Assembly: GCA_026225215.1 (NCBI GenBank)
Contig: JAMFSI010000039.1
Location: 8,897 to 72,896, forward strand
Direction of reading: 5' to 3'
DNA length: 64,000 nucleotides
From: Sphingomonas palustris
GTDB lineage: Bacteria > Pseudomonadota > Alphaproteobacteria > Sphingomonadales > Sphingomonadaceae
A model generated the notes under the pieces. It worked only from the letters and a program-made list of their open reading frames with translations. It made no database searches and was not told the DNA's origin. Below, in pieces: positions 4,435 through 24,828 of the stretch; the stretch's first letter is position 1, and every line of letters starts with the position of its first letter. Both the position numbers and the translations under genes were made by a program.

Positions 4435-4653
4435 GCCATGCTCCTTATGCCGGCCCTGCATCGGCCTGACAGGTGTTCGCGCCGAGCCATAGCATTTTAT
4501 CGTCGGCCGGAAAGCTTGCGCTGCTTCGGGAGCCATCCAGGAGCAGCCAAACCCGAACAAATTGCAGGCAAATTGTAAAATGCTTTGCTTCCAAAAACGG
4601 GATCGTAGATAGGCGGGTTGCCCGGGGGGGTGTCTAATTCCGGGGTTCGCGAT

Positions 4654-7600: not shown

Positions 7601-8076
7601 TGTCGCTGTTCCTGCACCAGGTGGTAAAAGAACTACCCGCCGAGCAGCAGAAGATGATCCAGAAAGCGCGCAACCGCGATGCGATCCTGGAAGGGCGGCG
7701 CATCCTGATCGTCGAGGACGATGTCCGGAATATCTATTCGCTGACCAATATCCTCGAGCCGCGCGGTGCCGTGGTCGAGATTGCCCGGAACGGGCGGGAA
7801 GCGATCGAGGCGCTGGAGAAATCCGCGGGCAGCGATGCCAATGCGATCGACCTCGTGCTGATGGACGTGATGATGCCGGTCATGGATGGGCTGACGGCGA
7901 CGCGCGCCATTCGTCAGGATGCCCGCTGGAAAAAACTGCCGATCATCACCCTGACCGCCAAGGCCATGCCCGACGACCAGCAGCGCTGCATCGAGGCGGG
8001 GGCGAGCGATTACATGCCCAAGCCGCTCGACGTCGATCGGCTGCTATCGCTCGTCCGGGTCTGGATGCCGCGGTAG
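4654..8076 (+). CDS. hybrid histidine kinase: TM-CHASE3-TM-GAF-coiled coil-HisKA-HATPase-3xREC
   Basis: ETGQRGFLLT (CHASE3), FLANMSHELRTPLN, GGTGLGL, receiver motifs VLDVGLPD, VLDLTLPD, LMDVMMP; start uncertain (4618 or 4654). Confidence 0.95.
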   Translation: MFSSRQTSGAPRAGVDLRAGAGLALIILFFILSGVIAYSNVNVLRDDATKIQHSHDVIAALDELLSTMQDAETGQRGFLLTSKEPYLAPYDAAVARAGPTLDLIANLTRDNPSQQARMVPLRRHVDAKLAELKQTIDLRRSAGSDAALAVVTTDRGKVEMDAIRTQLDLMQQEEARLRQFRQEEMSGAYQTAWVSGILSCLVGIVLTLAVGFLIRRATVARERLQWLQSGEARLASAMLGDLAPAELGENILSFLAHFLGGQCGAIFAGDGAHYQRIAAYGVPADARIVERFSQKEGLLGQVAAERAPAILSDIPDGYLALGSALGQTQPRHVIIAPAMADDVVRGVVELGFLQPVGDHAQEFLAIAADAIGIALRSAALRAELQNLLEETQRQSEELQVQSEELRVSNEELEEQGRALKESQVRLEQQQVELEQTNSQLEEQAGQLEAQRDDLTRSNSAVELKARELERASRYKSDFLANMSHELRTPLNSLLILSKLLYDNPAGNLTEDQVKYAHTIQSSGNDLLLLINDILDLSKIEAGQVQVRPETVSLDRVANDMRQMFQPLANERGLQFDIDIAENCPATIDTDRQRLDQVLKNLLSNGLKFTEAGSVRLSLAPAGAGEIAISVTDTGIGVAEDQQRDIFEAFRQADGTISRKYGGTGLGLSISRELARLLGGSITLTSKPGEGSCFTLTLPLAYDPALVAPRAEPAPLSRESAVLALPVKPALLPRRVDDDREKLETSGRILLVVEDDASFAGIVRDLSRELGFQCLVAGTAEEALQLARQFNPSAVVLDVGLPDQSGLAVLDRLKRDVETRHIPVHVVSASDHGQTALSLGAIGYLVKPVKREDLTEVLEALAAQLARTVRRVLIVEDDPVQLDAVKRLLASGDVETVGAGTAAECLQRLTENSFDCIVLDLTLPDASGFALLETLSEDGSHGFPPIIVYTGHDLSAADEQRLRRYSDSIIIKGARSPERLLDEVSLFLHQVVKELPAEQQKMIQKARNRDAILEGRRILIVEDDVRNIYSLTNILEPRGAVVEIARNGREAIEALEKSAGSDANAIDLVLMDVMMPVMDGLTATRAIRQDARWKKLPIITLTAKAMPDDQQRCIEAGASDYMPKPLDVDRLLSLVRVWMPR

Positions 8077-8078
8077 CT

Positions 8079-8903
8079 ATGTCCGACCTTATCGAGGACA
8101 TCGAGATCCGGCTGCTGCTGGAGGCGCTGCATCAGCGCTACCACTATGATTTTCGCAATTACGCCCAGGCATCGATCCGGCGTCGGCTGCGGCAGGCGCG
8201 TGACCAGCTGGGGTTCGCGAATTTCTCGGCCTTGCAGGAAGCCTTGTTACACGATGAGGCGATGTTGCCGCGATTGCTTGCCTATCTGACGGTCCAGGTC
8301 AGCGAGATGTTCCGCGACCCGTCCTATTTCCGGGCGATCCGCGAAAAGGTCGTACCGCACCTGCGCACCTTTCCGTCGCTCAAGATCTGGATTGCGGGCT
8401 GCAGCACCGGCGAGGAACTCTATTCCTTCGTCATTCTCTTTCGCGAGGAGGGGCTGGAGCAACGGACATTGTTTTATGCCACCGACATCAGCCAGGATGC
8501 GCTCGATGCGGCGGCGAGAGGAATCTATTCGCTCGACCGGATGAGGACCTTCACTGAGAATCACCGCGCTGCCGGTGGAAAATCCTCGCTGTCCGAATAT
8601 TATCGCACCGCTTACGGTAATGCCGTGCTCGATCAGGGTTTGCGCGATAAGGTGGTGTTCTCCGATCACAGCCTCGTCACTGACGCGGTTTTCGGCGAGA
8701 TGCATCTCATTTCCTGCCGTAACGTGCTAATCTATTTCAATCGCGATTTGCAGGACCGTGCCATCGGTTTGTTTCGGGATTCGCTGGGCCGGAAGGGGTT
8801 TCTGGGGCTGGGTTCCAAGGAGAATATTCGCTTTTCGAGCCATGCCGATGGTTTCAGCGATTTCGCTCGCCAGGATAAGATCTATCAAAGGCGCGAAGCA
8901 TGA
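8079..8903 (+). CDS. cheR: CheR-type protein-glutamate methyltransferase
   Basis: VSEMFRDP, IWIAGCSTGEE.YS, ATDIS, ISCRNVLIYF; start ATG 8079. Confidence 0.95.
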   Translation: MSDLIEDIEIRLLLEALHQRYHYDFRNYAQASIRRRLRQARDQLGFANFSALQEALLHDEAMLPRLLAYLTVQVSEMFRDPSYFRAIREKVVPHLRTFPSLKIWIAGCSTGEELYSFVILFREEGLEQRTLFYATDISQDALDAAARGIYSLDRMRTFTENHRAAGGKSSLSEYYRTAYGNAVLDQGLRDKVVFSDHSLVTDAVFGEMHLISCRNVLIYFNRDLQDRAIGLFRDSLGRKGFLGLGSKENIRFSSHADGFSDFARQDKIYQRREA

Positions 8904-9487
8904 GCAGCAGCGAGGCACCCGAAGGCGCGCGCCTGGTCGTGATCGGTGCGTCGGCGGGCGCGCTCCAGGCCTTGACGCAGATCCTGCCGGCGCTGCCTGT
9001 CGATTATCCCTTGCCGATCCTGATCGTGGTTCACATTCCCCCGGATCGGCGGAACATGCTGGCGCCGCTGTTCCAGGCAAAATGCCGCATGGCGGTTCGC
9101 GAAGCGGAGGACAAGGAGCCGGGGCTGGCGGGCGTGGTCTATTTCGCTCCGCCCGACTATCATCTGCTGGTCGAGACGGATGGCACTCTTTCGCTGTCGA
9201 GTGACGAGGAAGTCTGGTTCTCCCGGCCATCGATCGACGTCTTGTTCGAAAGCGCGGCCGATGCCTATGGTGCCGGTGTGATCGGGATCATCCTGACCGG
9301 CGCCAATCCGGACGGTGCGAGTGGATCGAAGGCGATCGCCGATGCCGGGGGCACCGTGCTCGTGGAAGACCCGGCGACGGCTTATGCCAGTGCGATGCCG
9401 CTCGCGGCGTTGCAGGCTTGCGGGACAGCGCGGGCCATGCCGCTCGCCGCTATCGCGAACTGCTTATTGAAAGAGTGTGCCGCATGA
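8900..9487 (+). CDS. cheB: CheB-type methylesterase, catalytic domain only (no REC)
   Basis: IGASAG (Ser), VVHIP (His), GANPDG (Asp); RPSIDVLFESAA. Confidence 0.93.
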   Translation: MSSSEAPEGARLVVIGASAGALQALTQILPALPVDYPLPILIVVHIPPDRRNMLAPLFQAKCRMAVREAEDKEPGLAGVVYFAPPDYHLLVETDGTLSLSSDEEVWFSRPSIDVLFESAADAYGAGVIGIILTGANPDGASGSKAIADAGGTVLVEDPATAYASAMPLAALQACGTARAMPLAAIANCLLKECAA

Positions 9488-10623
9488 TCAGTGCTATGGA
9501 ACCGGTACACTTTCTTCTGGTCGATGATCTGGCGGAGAATCTCGTCTCGCTGGAAGCCCTGCTCAAGCGCGACGACTTGGTGCTGTTGAAGGCGCAGTCA
9601 GCGGATCAAGCGCTGGAATTGCTGCTGACTCATGACGTCGCGCTGGCGCTGCTCGACGTCCAGATGCCGGGAATGGACGGGTTCGAGCTGGCCGAATTCA
9701 TGCGCGGCAGCGAGCGGACGCGACATATTCCGATCATCTTCGTGACCGCGGGGAGCGCCGATAATCAGCGCCGCTTCCGCGGTTATGAAGCCGGTGCGGT
9801 CGATTTTATCCAGAAGCCGATCGAGGCGGATATCCTGCGCAGTAAGGCCAATGTGTTTTTCGACCTCTATCGCCAGCGCCAGCAGATTGCCGCCCAGCGC
9901 GACGAATTGGCGGTGGCGTCACAAGCGCTCCACGATGCGGATCGGCGCAAGGATGAATTTCTCGCGATCCTGGCGCATGAATTGCGCAATCCGGTCGCCG
10001 CGATCGGCGGCGGTTTGCGGCTGTTGAAGCGGCATGCGACCTCCGAGCCAGCCGAGGATCTGCGCGGCAAGATGGAGCGCCAGCTGTTCCATTTATCGCG
10101 TCTGGTCGAGGATCTGCTCGATATCTCGCGGATCAGCGAAGGCAAAATCCTGCTGCAAAAGGACCGCGTCGCCCTGGATACGATCGTGCGATCCGCGATC
10201 GAGGCGAGCCAGGCCAATCTCGATGCGGCTCGCCATAGCTTTACCGTCGATTTGCCGCAGGAGCCGATCTGGCTCCATGCCGATCACACCAGGATCGCAC
10301 AGGTCCTGGCGAATCTGCTCAACAATGCCGCCAAATATACGCCGCCTGGTGGCCATATCTCGCTTTCGGCGCGGCGCGCTGGTGGGCATGTCGAGATTTG
10401 CGTAGCGGACGATGGCATTGGCATCCCCGCCGAAATGCAATCGCAGATATTCCAGATTTTCGCGCAAGTCGAAGGCCATCGCATTCGCGCGGCGGGCGGT
10501 CTAGGCGTGGGCTTGGCCTTGGTCCGCCAACTGGTGGCGCTCCACGACGGATCAATCGCCGTGCACAGCGAAGGACAAGGGAAGGGCAGTCAATTTACGA
10601 TCAGACTGCCCATCGAAACTTAG
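9484..10623 (+). CDS. REC-HisKA-HATPase hybrid kinase
   Basis: LLDVQMP receiver; LAHELRNP H-box; NAAKYT, DDGIG, GLGVGL; ATGA overlap with cheB. Confidence 0.93.
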   Translation: MISAMEPVHFLLVDDLAENLVSLEALLKRDDLVLLKAQSADQALELLLTHDVALALLDVQMPGMDGFELAEFMRGSERTRHIPIIFVTAGSADNQRRFRGYEAGAVDFIQKPIEADILRSKANVFFDLYRQRQQIAAQRDELAVASQALHDADRRKDEFLAILAHELRNPVAAIGGGLRLLKRHATSEPAEDLRGKMERQLFHLSRLVEDLLDISRISEGKILLQKDRVALDTIVRSAIEASQANLDAARHSFTVDLPQEPIWLHADHTRIAQVLANLLNNAAKYTPPGGHISLSARRAGGHVEICVADDGIGIPAEMQSQIFQIFAQVEGHRIRAAGGLGVGLALVRQLVALHDGSIAVHSEGQGKGSQFTIRLPIET

Positions 10624-10650
10624 AGCGGGCAGCTGTGATCGAAATCCACT

Positions 10651-10744
10651 CCCGTCCATACTGAGCTTGTCGAAGCATTGCCTTGTTCTTCGGGTAAGAC
10701 CCAGAAAAGAAAGGCAGTGCTTCGACAAGCTCAGGACGGACGGG
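10651..10744. repeat. REP-like palindrome, type CCCGTCC..GAGCTTGTCGAAGC (copy 1 of 3)
   Basis: Inverted arms CTGAGCTTGTCGAAGCA / TGCTTCGACAAGCTCAG; also at 34793 and 37644. Confidence 0.92.
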
Positions 10745-10789
10745 AAAAGGGTCCGGGGTCGCGGTTAGCTGCTGCGCACTTTGGCATCC

Positions 10790-11010
10790 TTGCCATGCAG
10801 GGCTCGCAGCCGCCGAGTTGGGCACTGCGGATGCGGAGCGTTGCGAGCAGCTTGCCGCTGAGCAGATGGCGCGGGTAATTATAGTGCCGGTCGCCGTCAT
10901 CGGGGATTTATCATGCTCGGAACAGGCGGGGATGGGCGACGCCGTCTTGTCGGGCGGCGAGCCGCCTTCCTGAATGGTATGCTCCATGCGCAGCCGCTGG
11001 ATCGGTTGCG
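10790..11010 (-). pseudogene. frameshifted 5' fragment paralogous to the CMD/AhpD gene at 17994-18605
   Basis: One minus frame reads PDDGDRHYNYPRHLLSGKLLATLRIRSAQLGGCEPCMA (intact copy: PDDGDRHPNYPRHLLDGKLLELLRIRSAQLGGCEPCMA); 1-nt deletion near 10909; truncated beside the REP. Confidence 0.85.
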
Positions 11011-11078: not shown

Positions 11079-11094
11079 ATTCCAATAATGGAAT
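11079..11094. promoter_or_regulatory. candidate IclR operator ATTCCA-ATAA-TGGAAT
   Basis: Palindrome upstream of the acyl-CoA ligase operon; same motif at 16126 and 19468. Confidence 0.75.
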
Positions 11095-11252
11095 ATATAC
11101 TTTTCTATGTGGAATTGTGTGATTGACTCCAGGCTGAGTCAACGGCTTTGTGACTAGATCAGCGGCCCGGCGATGGGTGTTGTCGTTGACGACCGGGCGA
11201 TAGGCAGACAATTCAGAGCCACGCGGCGTGAACGCAATGGGATGAGGATGAA

Positions 11253-12836
11253 ATGAGCGGACAAGACGGTTCGTATCGGGATTTGCATCGGCCGCTGTAC
11301 ACTGCCGAGGTTCTGGCCAATGCGCTGAACAGCGGCGGCAGCCGGCCGCTGCTCCATATCCAGGGTGTCGCCACGCTGACGGTCGCCCAGGTCCGTGATG
11401 CCACCAGCCAATTCGTCCAAACGCTGGCGAGCCTGGGGGTCGGCAAGGGATCGCGGGTGGCGATGATCGCACCCAACCGTCCGGAATGTCTCCACGTCAC
11501 TCATGCGCTGCAATTGCTGTCGGCGATCTATGTCCCGCTGCATCCGTTGGCCGGGCTGTCCGATCACCTCCATGTGATCCGCGACGCCGAACTCGATATT
11601 CTCGTCTTCGACGCCGAACGCTTCGCGGCGCGCGCGACCGAGATTACTGCGGATATTGCGGGCATCCGGCTGTTGGCGCTCGGCGAAAGCCCGCTAGCGG
11701 ACGACATTTTCCGGCTTGCCGACAGCTTTACCCCGGGCCGACTGGCGCCCGCGCCTGAAGGCGAACATGATATCCTGCGCCTCGGCTATTCGGGCGGCAC
11801 CACCGGTAAGCCCAAGGCGATCCCCAGTTGCGCGCGCACTGGCGCTTACACCGGGCAGCTGATGCAATCGACCTGGGAATGGCCCAATCCGCCCATCATC
11901 CTCACTTGCGCGCCGCTCACGCATGCCGGCGGCGCGATGTTCATGCCGGCGCTGCTGCGCGGCGGCACGCTGCTGGTGATGAATGGCTTCGAGCCGGTGA
12001 AGGTGATGCAGGCGATCGCGGCGCATCGCATCAATTGCATGCTGATGGTGCCGACGATGATCTATGCGCTGCTCGATTGTCCGCGGCTCGGCGAGTTCGA
12101 TCTGTCGAGCCTGGAGACGGTGTTCTACGGTGCCTCGGCGATCTCGCCGGCGCGGCTGCGCGAAGCGATCCAGCGGATCGGGCCGGTGTTCGCGCAATTC
12201 TACGGCCAGGCCGAAGCGCCGATGGCGATCACCTATTTCAGCAAGGCCGATCACGACGTCAACGACCTGACCCGGCTGGCGAGCTGCGGCAAACCCAGCC
12301 CCTATATCCGCGTCGAACTGATGGACGCCGACTGCAAGCCGGTGGCCGAAGGCGAGCCCGGCGAGATCTGCGTGCAGGGGCCGCTGGTGATGGATGGCTA
12401 CCGCGATCCCGCACTGACCGTCGAAGCCTTTCGCGGCGGCTGGCTGCACACCGGCGATGTTGCGGTGCGCGATAGCGAGGGTTTCCTGCGGATCGTCGAT
12501 CGCACCAAGGACATGATCGTCTCCGGCGGCTTCAACATCTATCCGCGCGAGATCGAGGATATCATCGGTGAGCATGCGGCGGTGAGCCAGGTCGCGGTGA
12601 TCGGTGTTCAGCATCCGAAATGGGGCGAGGCGGTGACGGCGATCGTGGTGCTCAAACCAGACCAAAGCGTGGATCAGGTCGAACTGATCGCGCAAGTGGC
12701 CGAGCGCAAAGGCTCATTCCAGGCGCCCAAGTCGGTGATATTCGTCGATGCGATTCCGCAGACGCCGGTGGGCAAGCCCGACAAGAAGGCGCTGCGCGTG
12801 CAATTCGTGCGGCGCCGGTGGCATGAGCGAGCTTAG
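11253..12836 (+). CDS. AMP-forming acyl-CoA synthetase
   Basis: YSGGTTGKPK, FYGQAE, WLHTGD, RTKDMIVSGGFNIYPREIE, GKPDKKAL. Confidence 0.95.
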   Translation: MSGQDGSYRDLHRPLYTAEVLANALNSGGSRPLLHIQGVATLTVAQVRDATSQFVQTLASLGVGKGSRVAMIAPNRPECLHVTHALQLLSAIYVPLHPLAGLSDHLHVIRDAELDILVFDAERFAARATEITADIAGIRLLALGESPLADDIFRLADSFTPGRLAPAPEGEHDILRLGYSGGTTGKPKAIPSCARTGAYTGQLMQSTWEWPNPPIILTCAPLTHAGGAMFMPALLRGGTLLVMNGFEPVKVMQAIAAHRINCMLMVPTMIYALLDCPRLGEFDLSSLETVFYGASAISPARLREAIQRIGPVFAQFYGQAEAPMAITYFSKADHDVNDLTRLASCGKPSPYIRVELMDADCKPVAEGEPGEICVQGPLVMDGYRDPALTVEAFRGGWLHTGDVAVRDSEGFLRIVDRTKDMIVSGGFNIYPREIEDIIGEHAAVSQVAVIGVQHPKWGEAVTAIVVLKPDQSVDQVELIAQVAERKGSFQAPKSVIFVDAIPQTPVGKPDKKALRVQFVRRRWHERA

Positions 12837-13752
12837 CCACCCCCTCGCTGGCCGCGTCGTGCTGATCACCGGCGCGGGACGCGGGCTCGGACGCGCGCAT
12901 GCTCTGGCCTGCGCGGCGCTGGGTGCGCGCATCGTCGTCAATGACTTCGGCGGTTCGCGCGATGGCGTCGGCGCGTCATCCGGCCCGGCGGATGAAGTGG
13001 TCGCGGAAATCCGGGCGGCAGGCGGCGAGGCCGTGGCCCATGCCGGCAATGTGGCCGAGCCCGAAGATGCAGCTTCAATGGTCGCGCTGGCGCTTGATCG
13101 CTTCGGAGAGTTGCACGCTTTGGTCAACAATGCCGGCATTCTGCGCGACAGAAGCCTGCTTAATCTGACAATCGACGAATGGACGCAGGTGGTCGATGTC
13201 CATCTGCGCGGCACTTTCGTGATGACTCAGGCCGCCGGGCGCTACTGGCGCGACCAGGCCAAGGCCGGTACCCCGATCGCCGCGCGCATCGTCAACACCT
13301 CCTCGGGCAGCGGCTTGTTCGGCAATTTCGGCCAGGCCAACTACAGCGCGGCCAAGGGCGGCATCGCCTCGCTCACCGCGACCACCGCGATCGAGCTAGG
13401 CCGTTACGGCGTCACCGCCAATGCCATTGCCCCGGTTGGCAAGACTCGCCTGATTTCGGAAGATCCCGAATTCGTAAAACTCAAGGAAGGCTTCGATCCG
13501 CTCGATCCCGCCAATGTCTCGCCATTGGTGACCTGGCTGGTCAGCGAGGAGTCCGGCGAGATCACCGGGCGCACCTTCTCGGTTGCCGGGGGTTATATCG
13601 GCGTGGTCGAGGGCTATCTGCGCGGCCCCGGCATGCAGCACGACCGCAAACTGACCTTCGCCGATATCGACGCCGAGTTACCAGTGCTCGTCGCACAATC
13701 GCGGCCCCGCACCAGCGCGTATGAATCTCACCCCTATTCGGGGCGCGGCTGA
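12823..13752 (+). CDS. SDR, 3-hydroxyacyl-CoA dehydrogenase/MFE-2 N-terminal-like
   Basis: TGAGRGLG, NNAGILRD, YSAAK; start ATG 12823. Confidence 0.92.
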   Translation: MSELSHPLAGRVVLITGAGRGLGRAHALACAALGARIVVNDFGGSRDGVGASSGPADEVVAEIRAAGGEAVAHAGNVAEPEDAASMVALALDRFGELHALVNNAGILRDRSLLNLTIDEWTQVVDVHLRGTFVMTQAAGRYWRDQAKAGTPIAARIVNTSSGSGLFGNFGQANYSAAKGGIASLTATTAIELGRYGVTANAIAPVGKTRLISEDPEFVKLKEGFDPLDPANVSPLVTWLVSEESGEITGRTFSVAGGYIGVVEGYLRGPGMQHDRKLTFADIDAELPVLVAQSRPRTSAYESHPYSGRG

Positions 13753-14591
13753 TGCCACTGGACCTGTCCGCCGTCGGCCGTGAAAGCGGGCCTCATCCGG
13801 TCGAGTGGAATTCGCGCGATGCGATCATCTATGCGCTGGGCGTCGGCGCGGGGTCGCAGGACCCCTATCGGGAATTGGCCTTCACCACCGAGAATTCGAC
13901 CGGGATCGCCCAGCAGGTCCTGCCGACTTTCGCGCTGGTGGTGAGCCCGCGCCAGGCGGCGCCGATTGCGATCGGCGAGTTCGACCGCAGCAAGACCGTC
14001 CATGGCGAGCAGGCCTTGATCCTGCACAAGCCGCTGCCGCCCGATGGCAAGGGCTTTGCGACCAATCGCATCGACGCCATGTACGACAAGGGCAGCGGCG
14101 CGCTGGTGGTGCGCACCACGATGCTCACCGCCGAGGATGGGCGGCCGCTGGCGACGGCGCATATTGGCCAATTCATTCGGGGCGAGGGCGGCTTCGGCGG
14201 CGACCCCGGCCCCAAATTCGACTGGACCGCGCCCGATCGAGTGCCGGACCACACCATCTTGCAGCCCACGCGCTCCGACCAGGCACTGCTTTATCGGCTC
14301 TCGGGCGATCGCAATCCGCTGCACTCGGACCCAGCCTTTGCGAAGCGCGCCGGCTTCGAGAAGCCGATCCTGCATGGCATGTGCAGCTTCGGCTTCATCG
14401 GGCGAGCGATCCTGGCGCTGGCGGACCATGATCCGGCCCGCTTCAAAAGCATGAAGGCGCGTTTTTCCAAGCCGGTCATTCCCGGCGAAACGCTGCGCAG
14501 CGAATTCTGGATAGACGGCGGCGCGATCCGGTTCCGCAGCTTCGTTGGCGATCGGATGGTGCTGGATGGCGGCGAGGCGGAGATAGCATGA
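13752..14591 (+). CDS. MaoC-type (R)-enoyl-CoA hydratase, double hot-dog fold
   Basis: YALGVG, HGEQ, YRLSGDRNPLHSDP, PILHGMCSFG. Confidence 0.93.
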   Translation: MPLDLSAVGRESGPHPVEWNSRDAIIYALGVGAGSQDPYRELAFTTENSTGIAQQVLPTFALVVSPRQAAPIAIGEFDRSKTVHGEQALILHKPLPPDGKGFATNRIDAMYDKGSGALVVRTTMLTAEDGRPLATAHIGQFIRGEGGFGGDPGPKFDWTAPDRVPDHTILQPTRSDQALLYRLSGDRNPLHSDPAFAKRAGFEKPILHGMCSFGFIGRAILALADHDPARFKSMKARFSKPVIPGETLRSEFWIDGGAIRFRSFVGDRMVLDGGEAEIA

Positions 14592-14995
14592 GCATGAAAC
14601 CGGTCCCCATACCCACCCCAGAGACCCAGACCTTCTGGGATAAAGCGCGCGAGCATGAATTGTGGCTGCCGAAATGCGTTGATAGCGGGCAAGTGTTCTT
14701 TCCGCCGCGCGCCTTCTCGCCGTTCACCGGCGGAGCGGTGGCGTGGGAAAAGGCCAGCGGTAAGGCGAAGCTCGCCTCCTTCGTCATCGTCCACCGCCCC
14801 TCGCCGGGCTATGAGGCAGAGGCGCCCTATGTGATCGCCCTGGCCGAATTGGCCGAGGGTCCGCGGATGATGACCAATTTGCCCGGTGCGCCGGTCGATC
14901 CTGCCGCGCTGACCATCGGCGCGCCGCTCATCGTAAGTTTCGAGGCGCGCGGCGACATCGTCATTCCGCAATTTCGCCTGGAGGATGAGGCATGA
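14588..14995 (+). CDS. DUF35 Zn-ribbon/OB-fold protein (ChsH2-C/BbsA/PhlB-like)
   Basis: PTPETQTFW, C..SG..FFPPR, PYVIALAELAEGPRMMTNL; the zinc-ligand set looks reduced (only one Cys). Confidence 0.88.
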   Translation: MSMKPVPIPTPETQTFWDKAREHELWLPKCVDSGQVFFPPRAFSPFTGGAVAWEKASGKAKLASFVIVHRPSPGYEAEAPYVIALAELAEGPRMMTNLPGAPVDPAALTIGAPLIVSFEARGDIVIPQFRLEDEA

Positions 14996-16122
14996 GCGTG
15001 GTGATCGTCGGCGCTACCGAATCCGCACGGTTGGGGGTGGTGCCCGATCAATCGGCAATGTCGCTGGCTTGTGAATCTGCGATTGCCGCTTTGCGCCAGG
15101 CTGGTCTCACGATTACCGATGTCGATGGCGTCGCCGGCACGATGTCGCCGATCGAGATCGCCTTTGCGCTCGGCGCCAAGCCGCGCTGGCTCGACGGAAC
15201 CATGGTCGGCGGCTGTTCCTACATGCTCCATGTCCGTCATGCAGTGGCCGCGATCGAGGCGGGGCAGGCCGATGTCGTCGTTATCGCTCATGGCGAATCC
15301 GGGCGGTCGCGCGTCGGTGCGCCGAGTTACACCAAGAATCCCAGCGATCTGACCGGGCAGTTCGAAATGCCTTATGGCATCCTCGGCTCATACACGCGCT
15401 TCACCCTGCCGGTGATGGCCTATCTCCATAAATATGGCCTCGGAGAAGCCGATCTCGCCGAGGTACCCGTTGCCCAGTCGCGGTGGGCGAATCGCAATCC
15501 GCGTGCTCTAAGACCGGAGTTGCTGTCGGTCGACGACGTGCTGGCATCGCCGCTGATTGCGTGGCCGTTCCATCGGTTCGAATGCTGCCCGGTCACGGAT
15601 GGCGGCGGCGCGCTGGTGCTGACCTCGCAGGAACGCGCGGCGGATATGAACCTGCGCTATCGCCCGATAACGGTAATCGGCAGCGGCGAATCCTGCGAGG
15701 GTCCGGGTCCGGTGTTCATGGAGGATCTGACCAGTTTCCGCGCTTTCCGCGATGCTTCCGCCGCGGCGATGCGCACTTCGGGCGTCAGCCATGCTGAGGT
15801 CGATCATCTGATGATCTATGACGCCTTCGCGCATGTGCCGATATATGGCCTCGAAGATATGGGCTTCGTCGGGCGCGGCGAAGCGGTGGACTTCATTCGC
15901 AGCGGCGCGACCAGCCCCGGCGGTTCGCTGCCGATGAATACCACCGGCGGCGGTTTGCTTTATACGCATACCGGCATGTACGGGATGTTTGCGCTGCTCG
16001 AGGCGGTGCGCCAGCTTCAGGGCTGTGCCGCCGCTCAGCTTGACCAGGTGCGGACCAGCCTCGTGCTTGGCGCGGGCGGGATGTTCAGCGCCGCTGGCGC
16101 GGTAATGCTCCGTGCAGATTGA
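14992..16122 (+). CDS. SCP2/Ltp2-type thiolase-fold protein
   Basis: GGCS, ECCPVTDGGGA, IYDAF, NTTGGGLLYTH; coupled to the DUF35 gene. Confidence 0.9.
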   Translation: MSVVIVGATESARLGVVPDQSAMSLACESAIAALRQAGLTITDVDGVAGTMSPIEIAFALGAKPRWLDGTMVGGCSYMLHVRHAVAAIEAGQADVVVIAHGESGRSRVGAPSYTKNPSDLTGQFEMPYGILGSYTRFTLPVMAYLHKYGLGEADLAEVPVAQSRWANRNPRALRPELLSVDDVLASPLIAWPFHRFECCPVTDGGGALVLTSQERAADMNLRYRPITVIGSGESCEGPGPVFMEDLTSFRAFRDASAAAMRTSGVSHAEVDHLMIYDAFAHVPIYGLEDMGFVGRGEAVDFIRSGATSPGGSLPMNTTGGGLLYTHTGMYGMFALLEAVRQLQGCAAAQLDQVRTSLVLGAGGMFSAAGAVMLRAD

Positions 16123-16125
16123 AAT

Positions 16126-16139
16126 TTCCAATACTGGAA
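16126..16139. promoter_or_regulatory. candidate IclR autoregulatory operator TTCCA-ATAC-TGGAA
   Basis: Same palindrome as 11080 and 19468, directly upstream of the IclR gene. Confidence 0.75.
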
Positions 16140-16190
16140 TGAGTTTGCTATCGCTCATGAAATGTAAGGCTTGAAACGGGAATGCGTTGA

Positions 16191-17087
16191 GTGTCGGAAA
16201 TGTCAAACCCCACCAGCCGCGTGATCGACGTGCTGAATTTTCTCGCCGCTCACCCCACCGAAACCTTCTCGCTTGCCGAAATTGCTCGCCATGTCGGGCT
16301 GAGCAACGGCTCCGCACACCGTATCTTGACGACTCTGGCTGGCGCACAATTTCTGTCGCGTAACGACAAGCGGCGGACTTATTCTCTCGGCGTGGCGATG
16401 GTGGCGATCGGCCAGGCCACGGTCGAAAAGCATCGCGGCATCGAAGTCGCCAGACGCGAAATCGGCCGCCTTGCCGTCGAGCTGGATTTGCAATGCAGCG
16501 CCAACGCTGTGGTCGATGGCGAGCTGCTGGTGCTGGTCAAGGAAGGCAACCCGCGGTCGCATCGCGGTTTGACGCGGGTCGGCGAACGCCGCCCATTGCT
16601 GCCGCCGCTGGGGCTGTGTCACATCGCCTGGGGCGGCGATGCGGTGATCGAGGCCTATCTCGACAAGGCGGCCCCGCATTTGAGCGAGGCGGTGCGAGCG
16701 CATCTTCTTGCGGCTTTTCCGCTGATCAGACGACGCGGCTATGCCACGGCAGCCAATGGCGCCATCATCCTCCATGCCCGCGAAGCCACGATGATTGCCG
16801 CCAATCAAATTCGCGATCAGGCCTATTGGTCATCGGTATTCACCTCGATCGAGCATCTGACGCCGAACGAGGTGCAATTGTTCGACATCAAAGACGCGGG
16901 CGACGTCGGCGTGGGTTACATCGCCGCACCGGTGTTCTCGCCGGCCGGTACCGTTGCTTTTCAGCTGGTCATTACCGGGCTGCCGGCCGATCTCCGCACA
17001 AGGGAGATCGAGCGCTACGCGGAAAGATTATGCGCGACAGCAGCCTTGATCACGAACGAGACTCACGGGCGACCGCCAAAGGGCTGA
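16191..17087 (+). CDS. IclR-family transcriptional regulator
   Basis: RVIDVLNFL...SLAEIARHVGLSNGSAHRILTTL HTH; RRRGYA and IAAPVF effector-domain motifs. Confidence 0.92.
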   Translation: MSEMSNPTSRVIDVLNFLAAHPTETFSLAEIARHVGLSNGSAHRILTTLAGAQFLSRNDKRRTYSLGVAMVAIGQATVEKHRGIEVARREIGRLAVELDLQCSANAVVDGELLVLVKEGNPRSHRGLTRVGERRPLLPPLGLCHIAWGGDAVIEAYLDKAAPHLSEAVRAHLLAAFPLIRRRGYATAANGAIILHAREATMIAANQIRDQAYWSSVFTSIEHLTPNEVQLFDIKDAGDVGVGYIAAPVFSPAGTVAFQLVITGLPADLRTREIERYAERLCATAALITNETHGRPPKG

Positions 17088-17122
17088 CGCTGGGGATCGT
17101 TGTCGTGCCGGATCCAACCAAA

Positions 17123-17152
17123 CGGGCGGCGTGACCGCAATCACGCCGCCCG
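17123..17152. terminator. hairpin between convergent genes, probable terminator
   Basis: CGGGCGGCGTGA-ccgcaa-TCACGCCGCCCG, 12-bp perfect stem. Confidence 0.7.
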
Positions 17153-17161
17153 CTTATGGCA

Positions 17162-17977
17162 TCAACCCTCGGCCAATAGCTTGTGCTCGTGCGCCTGCCT
17201 GGCGGTATCCTCGCGCGGGGCGATGGCATGAGCGAGCACGGTCTCGGCGCGATTGTCGACGCCGTTGATCAGCCGGGCGCGCTCGATATTGCCGGGGGTG
17301 CTGACGATCCACACCGGGCCATCGGCGATATTGTCGAGCCCTTCGCGCGCTACAGTCTCGGGCGGTTCGGCCAGTTCGATCGGCATGCCGAGCCGGGCCA
17401 TCGCCGGGGTCGCGGTGAAGCCGATGTTGAGGTGCAGCACATCGACGCCCAGCGGCTTGAGTTCGGCCCAGAGCGCTTCGGAAAAGATCCGGCTGAAGGC
17501 TTTCGAGGCGGTATAAGCGGCCAGCGTCGGCGATCCGAGATAGCTGCTCAGCGAACCACCCAGGATGATCCCGCCGCGCCCGCGCTTGACCATCAGCGCG
17601 CCATAATGGCGGGAAAGATTGGCCTGGCCCAGCACGTTGATGGAAATCACCGACTGCGTGACGGCTTCGGGCAGTTCGGTGAACAGCCCGCGCGTATCGT
17701 TGGCGCCGGCATTGTACACGAGCAGCCCGACGTCGATGTCGTCGGTCACCGTGCGAATCTGGTCGAGCACATCAGGCTTGCTGAGATCGGCCGAGAGGAT
17801 ACGTACCTCGGCGCCCTTGCCGCGCAGTTCATCGGCCAGTTCTTCCAGTGGCGCGGTTTTGCGTGCGGTCAGGACCAGCTTGAAACCGTCCGCCGCCAGC
17901 AAACGGGCGAAAGCCGCGCCGACGCCTTCGGAGCCGCCGATCACCAGCGCCCAAGGGCCATATTTTTCGAGATTCAT
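17162..17977 (-). CDS. SDR oxidoreductase
   Basis: IGGSEGVG, YNAG, YTASK; start moved to ATG 17977. Confidence 0.92.
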   Translation of the reverse strand: MNLEKYGPWALVIGGSEGVGAAFARLLAADGFKLVLTARKTAPLEELADELRGKGAEVRILSADLSKPDVLDQIRTVTDDIDVGLLVYNAGANDTRGLFTELPEAVTQSVISINVLGQANLSRHYGALMVKRGRGGIILGGSLSSYLGSPTLAAYTASKAFSRIFSEALWAELKPLGVDVLHLNIGFTATPAMARLGMPIELAEPPETVAREGLDNIADGPVWIVSTPGNIERARLINGVDNRAETVLAHAIAPREDTARQAHEHKLLAEG

Positions 17978-17993
17978 CGGATTTCCTTCCCAA

Positions 17994-18605
17994 TTAAGAT
18001 GCTTTTTCCAGCCGCGTTTGGGCGCCTTGTGAATGGAGTTCTGCCCAGGTCGCGCCAACTTGTTCGGGGGCGTAGGGAATGATCGGATCGCTTTCCCCGA
18101 AGACGTCGATCGCATGCAGAAAGCGGTGCGTGCCGATCATGTGGCCGCAGGTCGATCCCAGTTCGACGATTTCGGCGGTAGTGAAATGCTGCGCCAGGCG
18201 GCGGAACAGATCGTCGCCGATACGGTGATGGTCGGTGGCGAGCAGATCGATGAATTCCAGCGCCAATCGTTCGCGGGTGCTGAGATCGCCGCGCAGGCTG
18301 GGGTCGGTCAGGCAAGCCACCACGTCTTCGGTTGCCCCTTTGACTTTGCGCGAAGCCATACACGGCTCGCAGCCCCCCAATTGCGCGCTGCGGATACGCA
18401 GCAGTTCGAGCAGCTTGCCATCGAGCAGATGGCGCGGATAATTGGGGTGGCGGTCGCCATCGTCGGGCACTGTATCGTGGTCCGAATAGGCCAGGATCTG
18501 CAACGGCAGGGCAATGCGAAACGCTCCGGACGCGATACCCGCCTCGAAGGTCGCGCGTTGCTCGGGTTTCAGCTCATCCCAGGGGATCGGTGCTATGCGG
18601 GGCAT
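17994..18605 (-). CDS. carboxymuconolactone decarboxylase / AhpD-like protein
   Basis: ELLRIRSAQLGGCEPC (CxxC), RERLAL, HFTTAEIVEL. Confidence 0.85.
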   Translation of the reverse strand: MPRIAPIPWDELKPEQRATFEAGIASGAFRIALPLQILAYSDHDTVPDDGDRHPNYPRHLLDGKLLELLRIRSAQLGGCEPCMASRKVKGATEDVVACLTDPSLRGDLSTRERLALEFIDLLATDHHRIGDDLFRRLAQHFTTAEIVELGSTCGHMIGTHRFLHAIDVFGESDPIIPYAPEQVGATWAELHSQGAQTRLEKAS

Positions 18606-19465
18606 GGCACGTTCTCCTCATCGAGTTCGATGCCCATCGCCGCCATTTCGCGCTCGGCCCAGAAAATCCGCCCGGTATATTCCCAGGGATTCTCGCAAGC
18701 GGAGAAATAGACCAGCATCCGCGCCGGGACGGTCATCGGCACGGCGACGCTGGGGTCGAGGCCCTTTTCCTTGACCCGGATCGCGACCAGTTCGGTCGCG
18801 ACCAGGCCCGGATGCAGGCCGATGATGGCGATATTCTTGGTGTGGAATTCGGGCGCCATGCAATTGCCGAAGCGGTCGAGCGCGCGCTTGCTGCTGTAAT
18901 AGCCTGGCACCGCGAGGCTGAAGCTGCCCTGCGCGGCCAGTTTCGGCGGCTCCTCCGCCTGGCGGAACACCTCGCCGCTGCCGGTCGAAAGATTGATGAT
19001 CCGCCCGCCGCCGCGCTGCTCCATGATCGGCACGCACAGCTGGGTCAGCGTGAACGGCGCGTGGACGTTGACATCGAACTGATAGAGCCATTCGGCGCGG
19101 GTCAATTCCGAAAACGGCTTACCCCAGATGTCGCCCGTTGTCGCGGCGGCATTGTTGATGAGGATATCGACGCCGCCAAAGCGGGTAACAGCGGCATCGA
19201 CCAGCCGCTTAAGATCGTCTTCCTGCGCCAGGTCGGTGGCGACGGCGATGGCCTGCCCGCCGAGATCTTCAATCTGCTTGAGCGTTTCGCCGATGGTGCC
19301 GGGCAGGGTGCTGTCCGCCTCGACGGTTCGCGCCGCCAGCACGACCTGCGCACCGCGCCGGGCAAAATCCAGCGCGGCCTGCTTGCCGACGCCGCGACTG
19401 GCGCCGGTGATAATTACGACCTTGCCTGAAAGGTCCAGCTCCTGCTGCCGCTCCATCCTCGTCAT
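18593..19465 (-). CDS. SDR oxidoreductase
   Basis: TGASRGVG, NNAA, YYSSK; start at 19465 or 19456. Confidence 0.92.
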   Translation of the reverse strand: MTRMERQQELDLSGKVVIITGASRGVGKQAALDFARRGAQVVLAARTVEADSTLPGTIGETLKQIEDLGGQAIAVATDLAQEDDLKRLVDAAVTRFGGVDILINNAAATTGDIWGKPFSELTRAEWLYQFDVNVHAPFTLTQLCVPIMEQRGGGRIINLSTGSGEVFRQAEEPPKLAAQGSFSLAVPGYYSSKRALDRFGNCMAPEFHTKNIAIIGLHPGLVATELVAIRVKEKGLDPSVAVPMTVPARMLVYFSACENPWEYTGRIFWAEREMAAMGIELDEENVPCPA

Positions 19466-19467
19466 CC

Positions 19468-19502
19468 TTCCAATAATGGAATATTGTTTCATATTATTGG
19501 AA
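19468..19502. promoter_or_regulatory. candidate IclR operator TTCCA-ATAA-TGGAA plus a degenerate second site
   Basis: Exact match to the 11080 site, overlapping the RBS of the SDR; second site TCATATTATTGGAA at 19489-19502. Confidence 0.75.
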
Positions 19503-19600
19503 TTGTGAAATTAAGCGGAAGCTGAGTCAACTGGTTTCGTATTGCTGGCAATGAAGGGCATCGAGGGCGCGCGCGGCATCGCCCTGTTAATCCAACGCAA

Positions 19601-19743
19601 AAATCCTCCCCCACTGGGGGAGGTGGCTCGCGTAGCGAGACGGCGGGGGTGTGCTGGAAAGCGTCAGGGAGAAGAAAGGATCTGCGAATCCGCCCCCACC
19701 GTCAGCCCTATGGGCTGCCACCTCCCCCAAAGGGGGAGGATTT
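19601..19743. repeat. REP-like palindrome pair, type CCTCCCCC..GGGGGAGG
   Basis: AAATCCTCCCCCACTGGGGGAGGTGGC ... GCCACCTCCCCCAAAGGGGGAGGATTT inverted doublet. Confidence 0.88.
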
Positions 19744-19751
19744 TAGATGAA

Positions 19752-20537
19752 TTAAGGCCGCATCACCCAGCCGCCATCGACATGGATCGTCTGGCCGGTG
19801 ATCCATTCACCCGCCGGCGAGCACAGCAGCAGCAGCGCGCCGACCAGTTCGTCGGGGGCGCCGCGCGGGTGAATGGCGCAGGTCATTTCGAGGAATTTGA
19901 TGAAGGGTGAATCATCGGGAACCAGCGCCTTGCCGGCATCGGAGGTGACGTTGCCGGGAGCAATGGCGTTGCAAGTGATCTTGTCCTTGCCGAATTGCTT
20001 GGCCAGCGTGGTGGTCAGGCCGACCAGCGCCAGCTTGCTGATGCCGTAAAGCCCGATCGCGGGAAAGGCGCCGCCAGAGGTCTGGTTGACGATGCGCCCG
20101 CCGCCGCGCGCGCGCATCGCCGGGATGACTGCCCGGCTGCACAACAGCGCGCCGTTGAGATTGACTGCAAAGGCGCGGTTCCAATTGTCGAGGCTGATCG
20201 TTTCGCAATTGTCGTAGCTGATATCGACCATCAGCGCGGCATTGTTGACGAGGATGTCGATGCCGCCAAAGGCGTGGGTGGCGGCTTCGGCCAAGGCCAG
20301 CGTCGAGGCTTCGTCGGCGACGTCGACCTTTACGCCGATCGCCTTGCCGCCGGCATTGGTGATTTCAGCAGCCACGGCCTGCGCGCCCGCCTCATTGAGA
20401 TCGGCGACCACTACCGCCGCTCCCGCTTGCGCCAGACCCAGGGCATAAGCGCGGCCGATCGAATTGCCGCGCCCGCCGGCGCCGGTGACGATGGCGACTT
20501 TGCCGTCGAGGCGGAATTGATCGTTGGTGAAGGTCAT
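19752..20537 (-). CDS. SDR oxidoreductase
   Basis: TGAGGRGNSIG, NNAA, YGISK; start moved to ATG 20537. Confidence 0.92.
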   Translation of the reverse strand: MTFTNDQFRLDGKVAIVTGAGGRGNSIGRAYALGLAQAGAAVVVADLNEAGAQAVAAEITNAGGKAIGVKVDVADEASTLALAEAATHAFGGIDILVNNAALMVDISYDNCETISLDNWNRAFAVNLNGALLCSRAVIPAMRARGGGRIVNQTSGGAFPAIGLYGISKLALVGLTTTLAKQFGKDKITCNAIAPGNVTSDAGKALVPDDSPFIKFLEMTCAIHPRGAPDELVGALLLLCSPAGEWITGQTIHVDGGWVMRP

Positions 20538-20541
20538 GTGA

Positions 20542-21363
20542 TTAGTCCTTGAGCGGTTCGCCGGTCGCGGCGGTGAGGAAGGGAGCGGCGGTATCGCGCA
20601 GCAAGCGCGCGCCGGGGTGAGCGGGCAGGATGGACGAGAGGAGCCCGACGTCCTTGACCAACAACGGCGCGCCCGTGACGAAGGCGGATGGTGTCGGCAA
20701 ACGCGCGGCGACCTCGAAGCCAAAGCTGCGGCCGCTGCTTTCGCGGATCAGCGCGGCGAGCGCAGCGCGCTCGATCCCGAGTGCCTCGCCCGCGCCCAGC
20801 GCGGCATCGGCCAGCCCCATATTGGCGGCGAGCAGGGCATTATTGATGATCTTGGCACGCTGGCCGGCGCCGACTTCGCCCAGCCGCACGATAGTCTTGC
20901 CGAAACTCGTAAAGACCGGCTGAGCCGCCTCGAATGCCACCGCGCTGGCGCCGCACATCACCGTCAGCGTGCCCGCCTCCGCGCCGGGGCCGCCGCCGCT
21001 CACCGGGGCATCGATCAAATCGAGCCCGGCGACCGCAGCGCGTTCGGCGAGCGCGATCACGCTTTCGGGCAGGACGGTGGAATGGATAGCGATGCGGCTG
21101 CCGGGGCGCATCGCCGGGATCAATCGATCGCAGACGGCGAAGACATCGGCATCATTGACGACGCAGACGCCGACATGATCGCAAGCCGCGCCCAATTCGG
21201 CCACGCTGGCTGCTGCGACCGCGCCAAGCGCCTCGAACGGTACCAGCGCCTCGGGCCGCCGCGCCCAGACGATCAGCGGCATACCTGCCTTGGCGATCCG
21301 GGCCGCCATCGGGCCGCCTTGACTGCCCAGGCCGATGAAGCCGATCATTTGTGCGTTGGTCAT
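20542..21363 (-). CDS. NAD(P)-dependent oxidoreductase, 3-hydroxyisobutyrate dehydrogenase family
   Basis: GFIGLGSQG, DAPVSGG, GAGQRAKIINN. Confidence 0.93.
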   Translation of the reverse strand: MTNAQMIGFIGLGSQGGPMAARIAKAGMPLIVWARRPEALVPFEALGAVAAASVAELGAACDHVGVCVVNDADVFAVCDRLIPAMRPGSRIAIHSTVLPESVIALAERAAVAGLDLIDAPVSGGGPGAEAGTLTVMCGASAVAFEAAQPVFTSFGKTIVRLGEVGAGQRAKIINNALLAANMGLADAALGAGEALGIERAALAALIRESSGRSFGFEVAARLPTPSAFVTGAPLLVKDVGLLSSILPAHPGARLLRDTAAPFLTAATGEPLKD

Positions 21364-22118
21364 CCTGCGGTGATTCCTGCATCGATAGTAAGGCAGGCGC
21401 CGTGATACCCGCGCCCCGCGTCCGAGGCGAGGTAGGCGACCAGATCGGCGACATCCTCGACCTCAACCGTGCCGCGCATCCCCGAAAAGCGCTTGATCAG
21501 TTCAAAATCACAGCCCTCGGGCGGTACGAAATTGGCGGCGATATTGGTGATCATCCCGCCCGGCGCCACGGCGTTGATCCGGATCGGCTGCTTCATATAT
21601 TCCATCGCCATCGCCTTGGTCATCTGCACCAGCCCGGCCTTGCTGGCGCAATAAGCGGCGGCATAGGCTTCGCCGATATGCGCGGCGGTGGAGGCGACAT
21701 TGACGATCGCGCCTTTCGCCGCGAGCAGATGCGGGATTGCCGCCTGGCTCAGCAGAAACGGCGCGGTCAGGTTCACCGCCAGCGTGCGATGCCACTGCTC
21801 GGCAGGCATCTGGTGGCTGTTGGCGAGATAGATCAGCCCGGCAACATTGCACAGCGCATCAAGCTGCCCAAAGCGGGCAATCGCGGCCTCGACCGCAGGG
21901 GCAGATTGCGCGGGATCGGATAGATCGGCGGTATGGGTAAGGACGGGTACGTCACCCAGCAAAGCCGCGGTTTCGGCCAGCGCCTCGGCGTTGATGTCGA
22001 CGATCACCAGGCTGGCGCCGGCGCCAGCGAGCTTGAGCGCCGTGGCCCGGCCCAACCCCGAGGCCGCGCCGGTAACCAGCGCGACTTTTCCGGTCATGTC
22101 CGCGATTTGCATGGGCAT
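21360..22118 (-). CDS. SDR oxidoreductase
   Basis: TGAASGLG, NVAG, YCASK. Confidence 0.93.
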   Translation of the reverse strand: MPMQIADMTGKVALVTGAASGLGRATALKLAGAGASLVIVDINAEALAETAALLGDVPVLTHTADLSDPAQSAPAVEAAIARFGQLDALCNVAGLIYLANSHQMPAEQWHRTLAVNLTAPFLLSQAAIPHLLAAKGAIVNVASTAAHIGEAYAAAYCASKAGLVQMTKAMAMEYMKQPIRINAVAPGGMITNIAANFVPPEGCDFELIKRFSGMRGTVEVEDVADLVAYLASDAGRGYHGACLTIDAGITAG

Positions 22119-22183
22119 CCTCGAAGTTTGCAGAAAGAAACCAAGGTCGTCATCGCGCGATCCGGCAAATGCGAGCGATCAAA

Positions 22184-22360
22184 CTCCCCGCCCGCTTGCG
22201 GGAGGGGTTGGGGGTGGGCATCTGCGCCCGCCGCAAGCTTTGGGCTGGAGGACCTAGCGCTAACATCGCCCGAAACCTGTCGCAATAATCCGGGCGTTTG
22301 CCACCAGGGTGAACATCGAAAAGTGCCCACCCCCGGCCCCTCCCGCAAGCGGGCGGGGAG
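22184..22360. repeat. REP-like palindrome pair, type CTCCCCGCCCGCTTGCGGGAGGGG (copy 1 of 2)
   Basis: ~37-bp inverted arms around a ~100-bp spacer; second copy at 30124. Confidence 0.92.
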
Positions 22361-22382
22361 AAGAAGTGCAGCGCTCCTTTCA

Positions 22383-23168
22383 TCACCCATTCCAGGGTTT
22401 ACCCTCGGCCACCTTCTTGATCATCTCGAATACCACGCTTTGGATCACCGAAGCCTTCGGCCAGCCGGCATGGATGCCATATGCCAGCACGAATTCCTGC
22501 ATTTCATCAGGCTGGCAATTGCCGCTGGCCATGGCGGCGTGGATGTGGCTGCGGATCGGGATATCGGACGAGCTTTCGGCGACGCCGACCAGCGTCATCC
22601 AGCGGCGCGAGCGTTCGTCGAGGCCGCGCCGGCACCACATTTCGCCGAACACGAAATTGCCGATGCCGGCGCCGAGATAGGGCGAACTGTTCGAGACGCC
22701 GGGAAAGGTCATGACTTTTTCGAACTCGGCAGCGCCTCTGGCCATGCGTTCTTCGGGGTCCCAGGCTTCGGCGCGGATCGGCGGGCAATCGGCGGGGGGC
22801 AGGCGCAGTTCCTCGGCGGCGCGGGTCACCGCACGATCGAGTTCGCCGCCGCGTGACCAGCCGGCATAGACCGACAGATGCAAGGCGGCCTCGCGCATTT
22901 CGGCCAGCGTCAGTTCCTTGCTTTTCAAAGCGCCGTGGACATAGCGGAACAGCTGGTCGCTGCCGTGCGGGCTCATCGCCGCGCCGGCCATGGCGATCAG
23001 ATAGCGCGCGCGACGATCGAGGCCAGGACGGCTCCACACCTCGGCAAAGATGAAATCGCGCCAGCTCTGCTCGTAAGGCGTGGCGGGGGAAGGGGCGGTG
23101 AAGCGGGTAATTTCCTCGGCGATGGCATGGCCGCGCGCGGAGCGTTCGGCAGGGTCGAGCAGGGTCAT
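22383..23168 (-). CDS. tandem-domain carboxymuconolactone decarboxylase-family protein
   Basis: Internal repeat: FAEVWSRPGLDRRAR and FGEMWCRRGLDERSR; YAGW and HAGWP. Confidence 0.88.
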   Translation of the reverse strand: MTLLDPAERSARGHAIAEEITRFTAPSPATPYEQSWRDFIFAEVWSRPGLDRRARYLIAMAGAAMSPHGSDQLFRYVHGALKSKELTLAEMREAALHLSVYAGWSRGGELDRAVTRAAEELRLPPADCPPIRAEAWDPEERMARGAAEFEKVMTFPGVSNSSPYLGAGIGNFVFGEMWCRRGLDERSRRWMTLVGVAESSSDIPIRSHIHAAMASGNCQPDEMQEFVLAYGIHAGWPKASVIQSVVFEMIKKVAEGKPWNG

Positions 23169-23218
23169 GCGGTATTTCTCCCGGGTAGCGCCGCGAAGTT
23201 GCCTCGCAGCGTTCTGTT

Positions 23219-24691: not shown

Positions 24692-24828
24692 GATTATCCT
24701 CTCCACGGGGTTAGCCCCGAATCCGATTTGCACCTTCATAATGGCTACATTAATCGCCGGTCAAGCGAAGATATAGGGGGTTCAAAGCTATTATGGACAA
24801 ATTATAGCGATATAATTAGGCTGCTGGG

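Follow-up and report, generated by a model that had tools for sequence, protein, structure and literature searches.

What does an IclR-type regulator control when its putative operator occurs three times in one stretch of DNA, and how did the copies come to be there? The question is raised by 64 kb of Sphingomonas palustris DNA (64,000 nucleotides of contig JAMFSI010000039.1, from position 8,897 to 72,896; hereafter the window), in which the dyad TTCCA-N4-TGGAA stands ahead of a five-gene cassette that begins with an acyl-CoA ligase gene (site 1), ahead of a gene for an IclR-family regulator of 295 aa (16200-17087, plus strand; site 2), and ahead of an operon encoding two SDR proteins and a CMD-like protein (site 3). 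Our answer, which we hold with good confidence on the strength of comparative sequence analysis, is that the dyad is the core operator of this IclR protein and belongs to an element of ~64 bp, that the three sites are paralogous copies which would serve repression and autoregulation, and that the cassette has been placed between the copy at site 1 (P1) and the IclR gene.

The pattern TTCCANNNNTGGAA has three exact matches in the window, at 11080-11093, 16126-16139 and 19468-19481 (no strand assigned), whereas 0.06 would be expected by chance and none of 100 dinucleotide shuffles reached at least three (0/100). Sites 1 and 3 both read TTCCAATAATGGAA, and site 2 reads TTCCAATACTGGAA. No one-mismatch copy of TTCCA-N4-TGGAA was found in the window, and at two mismatches the 13 matches do not exceed chance. 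A weight matrix derived from orthologous sites recovered only sites 1, 2 and 3, with nothing weaker above 8 bits elsewhere in the window and no intragenic copy; its core is invariant by construction, the sites having been picked by regular expression, and this weighs against our reading, as does a search of RNA runs for the window sequence, which returned no run containing it. Two runs that matched an orthologous locus of Novosphingobium AP12 were made up of assembled contigs whose ends could not be used. The original prediction had placed three copies of the dyad at these positions and none inside genes, and both the exact scan and the matrix bear it out. The three sites are homologous by descent, as argued below, and hence the shuffle statistic overstates their independence: they do not represent three independent events. 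The functional support that sequence can give the dyad is its conservation in other genomes, not the within-window chance statistic.

Each site is close to a gene start. Between the end of site 1, the operator palindrome of P1, and the ligase ATG (11253) there are 159 nt. Site 2 begins 3 nt past the thiolase stop codon (16120-16122) that closes the cassette, and the IclR ATG (16200) follows 60 nt past its end. Site 3 lies in the 5' leader of SDR1, the first gene of the SDR operon; an in-frame ATG (19465) is 2 nt away, and the start backed by orthologues, the ATG at 19456, is 11 nt away (MERQQELDLSGK; compare MMKRQKEHDLSGK and MMERQNELDLHGK in orthologues). The promoter-distal half of site 3 overlaps the Shine-Dalgarno sequence of SDR1, GGAAGGA.

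Orthologues of the IclR protein number in the hundreds, most of them from Novosphingobium and its relatives in the Sphingomonadales. An exact TTCCA-N4-TGGAA lies ~100 nt upstream of the orthologous gene in 29 of the 33 genome loci compared, which come from several phyla (of the other four, two have the dyad with one mismatch, another is truncated and the last lacks it). The original prediction had named a lack of conservation upstream of orthologues as one outcome that would refute it, and on this point it holds. The centre of the dyad is A/T-rich across orthologous sites. With offsets counted from the first dyad base (dyad = 0-13), a third half-site, TGGAA, occupies offset 30 without exception (25/25 orthologous regions), and it had not been preselected; GTCAA is present at offsets 51-60 in 25/29. 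When 241 million metagenome records were scanned with the composite pattern, which is blind to protein sequence, 30 stretches matched; 17 of these have the start of an IclR orthologue (52-77% identity) 26-61 nt past GTCAA, and in eight of the 17 SDR1 stands on the opposite side. In both genomes and metagenomes, then, the motif is found upstream of orthologous regulators irrespective of the neighbouring genes, and the dyad is kept with each kind of divergent neighbour, be it SDR1, SDR2, sulfotransferase or amidohydrolase. Since distant orthologues keep the composite with a sulfotransferase or amidohydrolase partner, the motif follows the regulator and not a particular target. Sulfotransfer_3 genes are divergent from distant IclR orthologues in loci L019, L021 and L023, and also occur near ligase orthologues in L030, L041 and L042.

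One genome adds a variant of the dyad. In locus L014 (13870-14030), a paralogous IclR gene is divergent from SDR1 and the dyad is replaced in the same frame by a symmetric version, TTTCA-N4-TGAAA, while GTCAA at offset 61 and the third box at its usual offset of 30 are kept. Symmetric change would be the natural outcome if a dimer reads the dyad, and it suggests diverged specificity within one genome.

The full control element extends over ~64 bp and comprises the dyad (offsets 0-13), the third half-site (30), a -10 box (nAnnAT, 34-39) and a -35 box (TTGAC, 58-62). The third half-site begins 21 bp after the second, exactly two helical turns, and has one base in common with the -10 box. A consensus promoter scan independently called a minus-strand promoter of the sigma-70 type with identical boxes and spacing, TTGACT-N17-CACAAT, both at P1 (11114-11142; -35 at 11142-11137, -10 at 11119-11114) and at P3, the copy containing site 3 (19502-19530; -35 at 19530-19525, -10 at 19507-19502). 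The promoter is conserved with the same polarity in orthologues, where TTGAC and -10 positions A2 and T6 are kept, as a sigma-70-type promoter with a 17-nt spacer should show. An inverted repeat, TTGACTC-N6-GAGTCAA (11123-11144), surrounds the -35 box of P1 and puts TTGACT on both strands, the plus-strand copy having no matching -10.

P1 and P3 share three identical blocks, TTCCAATAATGGAATAT (17/17), TGGAATTGTG (10/10, at 11110-11119 and 19498-19507) and GCTGAGTCAAC (11/11, at 11133-11143 and 19521-19531), separated by spacers that have diverged. The last two had been noticed in the original prediction as a weaker half-site and a further repeated word downstream of sites 1 and 3. Both are real, but their identity is another: TGGAATTGTG is the third TGGAA half-site (11110-11114 and 19498-19502, no strand assigned) fused to the -10 box of the predicted promoter, and GCTGAGTCAAC contains the -35 box (TTGAC) of the same predicted minus-strand promoter. 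P3 reads over the third box and the dyad into SDR1, with the dyad in a short leader. At site 2, the third box has degenerated to TGAAA and TTGAC is absent.

Gene order across loci points to the origin of these three sites. The ancestral unit, as reconstructed from it, is a divergon in which SDR1(-CMD-like)-SDR2 and IclR are read away from a shared promoter/operator, sometimes reduced to SDR1 and IclR. In locus L010, SDR1 and SDR2 are separate and each follows a full composite in the order -35, -10/box 3, dyad, gene, while the IclR gene comes after the SDR1 stop codon and carries the dyad only. The dyad-only form is also that of site 2 and of L050/L051, which hold the closest IclR homologues (79% identity) and no SDR neighbour. 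Together these patterns indicate that the target-side promoter uses the third box and TTGAC, and the regulator side the dyad alone. We therefore read the three window sites as paralogous copies of one ancestral bidirectional control region, where the original prediction had taken them for operators placed separately within a regulon.

Read on the minus strand, the window would consist of two tandem modules. Module one would run from P3 (19468-19531), the presumed working promoter of the SDR operon, through SDR1 (HSDL2/PRK08278-like, 18593-19456), a CMD/AhpD-like protein with a CxxC motif (203 aa, 17994-18605) and SDR2 (17162-17977), all on the minus strand and convergent with the plus-strand cassette and IclR genes; its partner IclR would have been lost. 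Module two would hold the IclR gene, site 2, the five-gene cassette and P1 in this order, followed by a gene relic. Site 2 would be the IclR-side remnant, with the dyad kept and the third box and -35 gone, and P1 (11080-11143) a complete copy whose SDR-side genes decayed to a relic of 50 codons.

The relic (10758-10907, minus strand) corresponds to residues ~46-94 of a second CMD-like gene and has two stop codons ahead of it. Its DNA is 80% identical to 18355-18491 and its protein 74% identical to residues 46-94 of the intact CMD-like gene. Its best 39 codons carry five unique substitutions, at positions at which the intact gene and its orthologues in other genera are 92-97% identical; this marks it as a decaying copy. 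At the DNA level it is 79% identical to the intact gene of the window versus 80% to the gene of locus L003; as it is no closer to the former, the two modules would be old paralogues or separate acquisitions. No SDR1 remnant was detectable to the left of P1, and no IclR remnant to the right of P3. An open reading frame of 128 aa (10601-10987, minus strand) considered as the target of P1 proved spurious, with no Pfam match, no CMD-like similarity and the relic in another frame. The P1 promoter being on the minus strand, the conserved promoter of site 1 faces the pseudogene relic and points away from the ligase operon.

This bears on whether the cassette is under the operator at all. The cassette (11253-16122, plus strand), a candidate regulon cargo between P1 and site 2, encodes a FadD8-like acyl-CoA ligase (11253-12836), an SDR (~12850-13752), a MaoC hydratase (13752-14591), a DUF35/ChsH2 OB-fold protein (14588-14995) and an SCPx-type thiolase (14992-16122). 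Its colinearity with contig L039 (82% DNA identity) is confined to 11279-16115, i.e. ligase start to thiolase stop, so that the cassette fills the exact space between P1 and the dyad ahead of IclR. Terminator prediction gave nothing between the thiolase gene and the IclR gene, and cassette and IclR would probably be transcribed together from the IclR-side promoter of P1 under the same repressor. Ligase or thiolase genes also co-occur with the operator independently elsewhere. In L081 (2754-7164), the composite is followed by SDR1, SDR2, a 44-nt gap, a ligase gene 77% identical to that of the window and a gene for a metallo-beta-lactamase-fold hydrolase; in L024, a metagenome-assembled genome from Verrucomicrobia, a ligase-SDR-DUF35-thiolase operon follows a second dyad, which is itself downstream of TTGACA-N18-GATCAT. 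We find IclR control of the cassette plausible and on balance favoured, as a lineage-specific trait at best.

Several observations weigh against such control. The closest orthologous ligase operon, the same five genes in L039, has no site at up to one mismatch in 13.9 kb, and there is no motif upstream of the ligase in L040-L044, other ligase orthologues being solitary and unmarked; the motif is thus not conserved upstream of orthologous ligase operons. The conserved P1 promoter points at the relic, opposite to the cassette, and the promoter scan called no consensus-grade plus-strand promoter between 11094 and 11252, where TTCCAA-N17-TTCTAT and a TTGACG at 11187 were weak candidates that did not pass. 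The IclR-side promoter is weakly definable, by inspection, from candidates of the form TTCCAA-N16-18 plus a T-A-T-rich -10 at offsets 22-29 and from a conserved TTGYTAT. A riboswitch or other RNA element in the 159-nt ligase leader was rejected: Rfam matches were all sub-threshold and confined to the hairpins described further below.

These facts lend themselves to another explanation, in which site 1 is the fossil control region of a decayed second SDR module, the cassette is driven by its own IclR-independent promoter, and the functional regulon consists of IclR and SDR1-CMD-like-SDR2. The aim of P1 at a pseudogene, the unmarked operon of L039, the absence of a ligase from most orthologous modules and the 159-nt gap ahead of the ligase ATG all agree with it. 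It sits less well with the 38/38 positions of the functional blocks that are identical between P1 and P3 while the spacers diverged, with the insertion of the cassette precisely in the IclR-side transcription path, with the ligase genes found under this operator in L081 and L024, and with the failure to see a better plus-strand promoter. We rejected the intact boxes of P1 as proof of current selection, since the changes expected under neutrality are too few: 0 were seen since pseudogenisation versus ~1-2 expected (our own estimate), which is not significant and also counts against control of the cassette. On this evidence a fossil site 1 is doubtful, yet of real weight. The membership of the ligase operon in the regulon, which the original prediction had proposed, stands in part: the ligase-type genes under the operator in L081 and L024 speak for it, and L039 and the polarity of P1 against it.

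The regulon may have grown by copying a whole bidirectional promoter-operator cassette. We advance this tentatively, as a scenario somewhat short of an even chance: a widespread IclR and SDR module of two to four genes would once have been present twice, and one copy would have lost its SDR genes and gained a five-gene CoA-dependent beta-oxidation-type cassette between control region and regulator gene, leaving an orphan P1 promoter that still fires into a pseudogene. The orphan output could be a regulated non-coding transcript convergent with the histidine-kinase gene beyond the relic. If true, an SDR-only regulon has been turned into a pathway regulon by cassette splicing.

With regard to the sense of regulation, box 3 is immediately next to the -10 and the dyad covers the ribosome-binding site at ~+14 to +27, from which repression of the SDR operon is predicted. 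If a tetramer (dimer of dimers) sat on the dyad and third box, it would mask the -10 of the target promoter together with its start site and early leader, and would keep the SDR1(-CMD-like)-SDR2 operon silent until a small-molecule effector releases IclR; the dyad upstream of iclR would give negative autoregulation. Autoregulation and control of the SDR-CMD-SDR operon, both proposed from the outset, thus fit the conserved architecture. A coenzyme A thioester as effector, in contrast, finds no support: most orthologous modules hold only SDR genes and no ligase, which makes an SDR substrate at least as likely. Nor, within the sequence available, is the expectation borne out that the remaining pathway genes could be located through the motif. 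There are no further sites in the 64 kb and most orthologous loci have a single dyad within +/-10 kb, so the regulon looks small and local. An activator acting from the same sites, in the manner of PobR and PcaU, seems to us rather improbable. Some IclR-family members with three-box sites are activators (PMC8222616) and a divergent regulator/target layout is also typical of activators, but a third box against the -10 and a dyad over the ribosome-binding site are classical repressor positions.

As for what binds the dyad, TTCCA-N4-TGGAA is very probably the site of the neighbouring IclR-type repressor. The protein has an N-terminal winged-helix domain (HTH_IclR, PF09339, E=2.8e-11, residues 9-58) and a C-terminal effector-binding domain (PF01614) whose match is marginal (25.9 bits versus a cut-off of 24) and weak or faint in orthologues. 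We infer its binding from sequence, and other regulators are nearby, such as the GntR/FCD gene at 24829-25557, so that another transcription factor could in principle own the dyad and the proximity of IclR be incidental. This we consider very unlikely: the motif travels with IclR orthologues across phyla and differing neighbour genes, TGGAA/TTCCA half-sites are typical of the IclR family, and the paralogous IclR of L014 comes with a symmetric variant of the dyad. Hardly credible is a third view, that of the three copies as fragments of a mobile or repetitive element, such as a miniature inverted-repeat transposable element (MITE) or a repetitive extragenic palindrome (REP), or a recombination scar of no regulatory role, because despite MITE-like and REP-like hairpins beside P1 (10650-10745) and P3 (19600-19744) only short functional blocks are shared and not a whole element, orthologous genomes have one copy at a fixed distance from IclR, and the conserved blocks coincide with promoter and operator features.

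The window derives from a root-nodule metagenome. The surroundings of the two modules are as follows. A plus-strand cluster unrelated to the dyad (4618-10623) encodes a CHASE3/GAF hybrid histidine kinase, CheR, CheB and a response-regulator/histidine-kinase protein, and its end at 10623 is followed by a gap of 630 nt. Between the stop codon of the response-regulator/kinase gene and the CMD-like relic lies the MITE-like inverted repeat (10650-10745), with 45-nt arms that are 84% complementary. On the other side, a pair of REP-like hairpins, CCTCCCCCnnnGGGGGAGG, at 19600-19627 and 19717-19744, forms a 28-nt inverted repeat; both are terminator-like, and they occupy the place expected for the IclR partner of P3. 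Beyond them, a minus-strand cluster of SDR, HIBADH-like, SDR, CMD and aldehyde dehydrogenase genes (19752-24739) and the divergent GntR/FCD gene (24829-25557) contain no TTCCA-N4-TGGAA.

These results provide a testable operator, promoter map and target set for an uncharacterised, widespread IclR group paired with a highly conserved HSDL2-like SDR; SDR1 is 82-90% identical across genera (loci L001-L017 and L053-L081), versus 52-79% for the regulator, and is thus the more conserved of the two. Once the effector is identified, the conserved 64-bp cassette could become a biosensor part. The locus is also a natural example of duplicated control regions that are reused or fossilised, and it warns against counting motif copies within a genome as independent evidence.

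How does this system compare with known ones? By its matches, the protein at 16200-17087 is a bona fide but divergent member of the IclR family from an uncharacterised orthologous group, related only distantly to characterised members. Its best NCBIfam match is BhcR, at 58 bits versus a cut-off of 350, and others reach 36 versus 285 and 30 versus 275, all far too low to equate it with BhcR, PcaR/PcaU/PobR or KdgR; the best sequence match in the PDB is KdgR (E=6e-7). A literature search for a characterised orthologue turned up only general work on IclR motifs and the unrelated PheR, and neither the orthologous group nor its SDR targets were found in the main text of PMC8222616 (supplements not searched).

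The closest likeness is to the group-1 operators of the IclR family, with consensus GKTYCRY-W3-4-RYGRAMC (Suvorova & Gelfand 2021, PMC8222616). Words and orientation of the half-sites agree (KTYCR...YGRAM there, TTCCA...TGGAA here, with an A/T-rich centre), and both kinds of site stand ahead of the regulator gene and a divergent target gene. In this family, a tandem spacing of 19-21 nt is taken to mean tetramer binding (PMC8222616), and here a second site likewise lies about two helical turns off, at 21 bp. Unlike group-1 second sites, it consists of one good half-site and not a full palindrome. The spacer also differs, being 4 nt in all our sites versus the 5-6 implied by the consensus as written, which counts against the assignment.

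The boxes of E. coli IclR and AllR (TGGAAATNATTTCCA and TTGGAAWAWTWTTCCAA, respectively) use the same TGGAA/TTCCA words but in the opposite order, TGGAA...TTCCA, the 'group 2' type. PcaU boxes have a direct-repeat orientation and spacing. Three-box operators are known for PcaU, PobR and HmgR (PMC8222616), and what is summarised there for PcaU and PobR of Acinetobacter (Popp et al. 2002, via PMC8222616) resembles our element in the combination of a palindrome with a third box on the same face of the DNA and in a regulator divergent from its target. PcaU and PobR activate the catabolism of aromatic acids and have 10-bp boxes of the GTNCG type, whereas here 5-nt TGGAA cores extend over -10 to +27 of the target promoter, predicting repression. 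The operator thus belongs to a well-known kind, and the orthologous group that would read it is an uncharacterised one.

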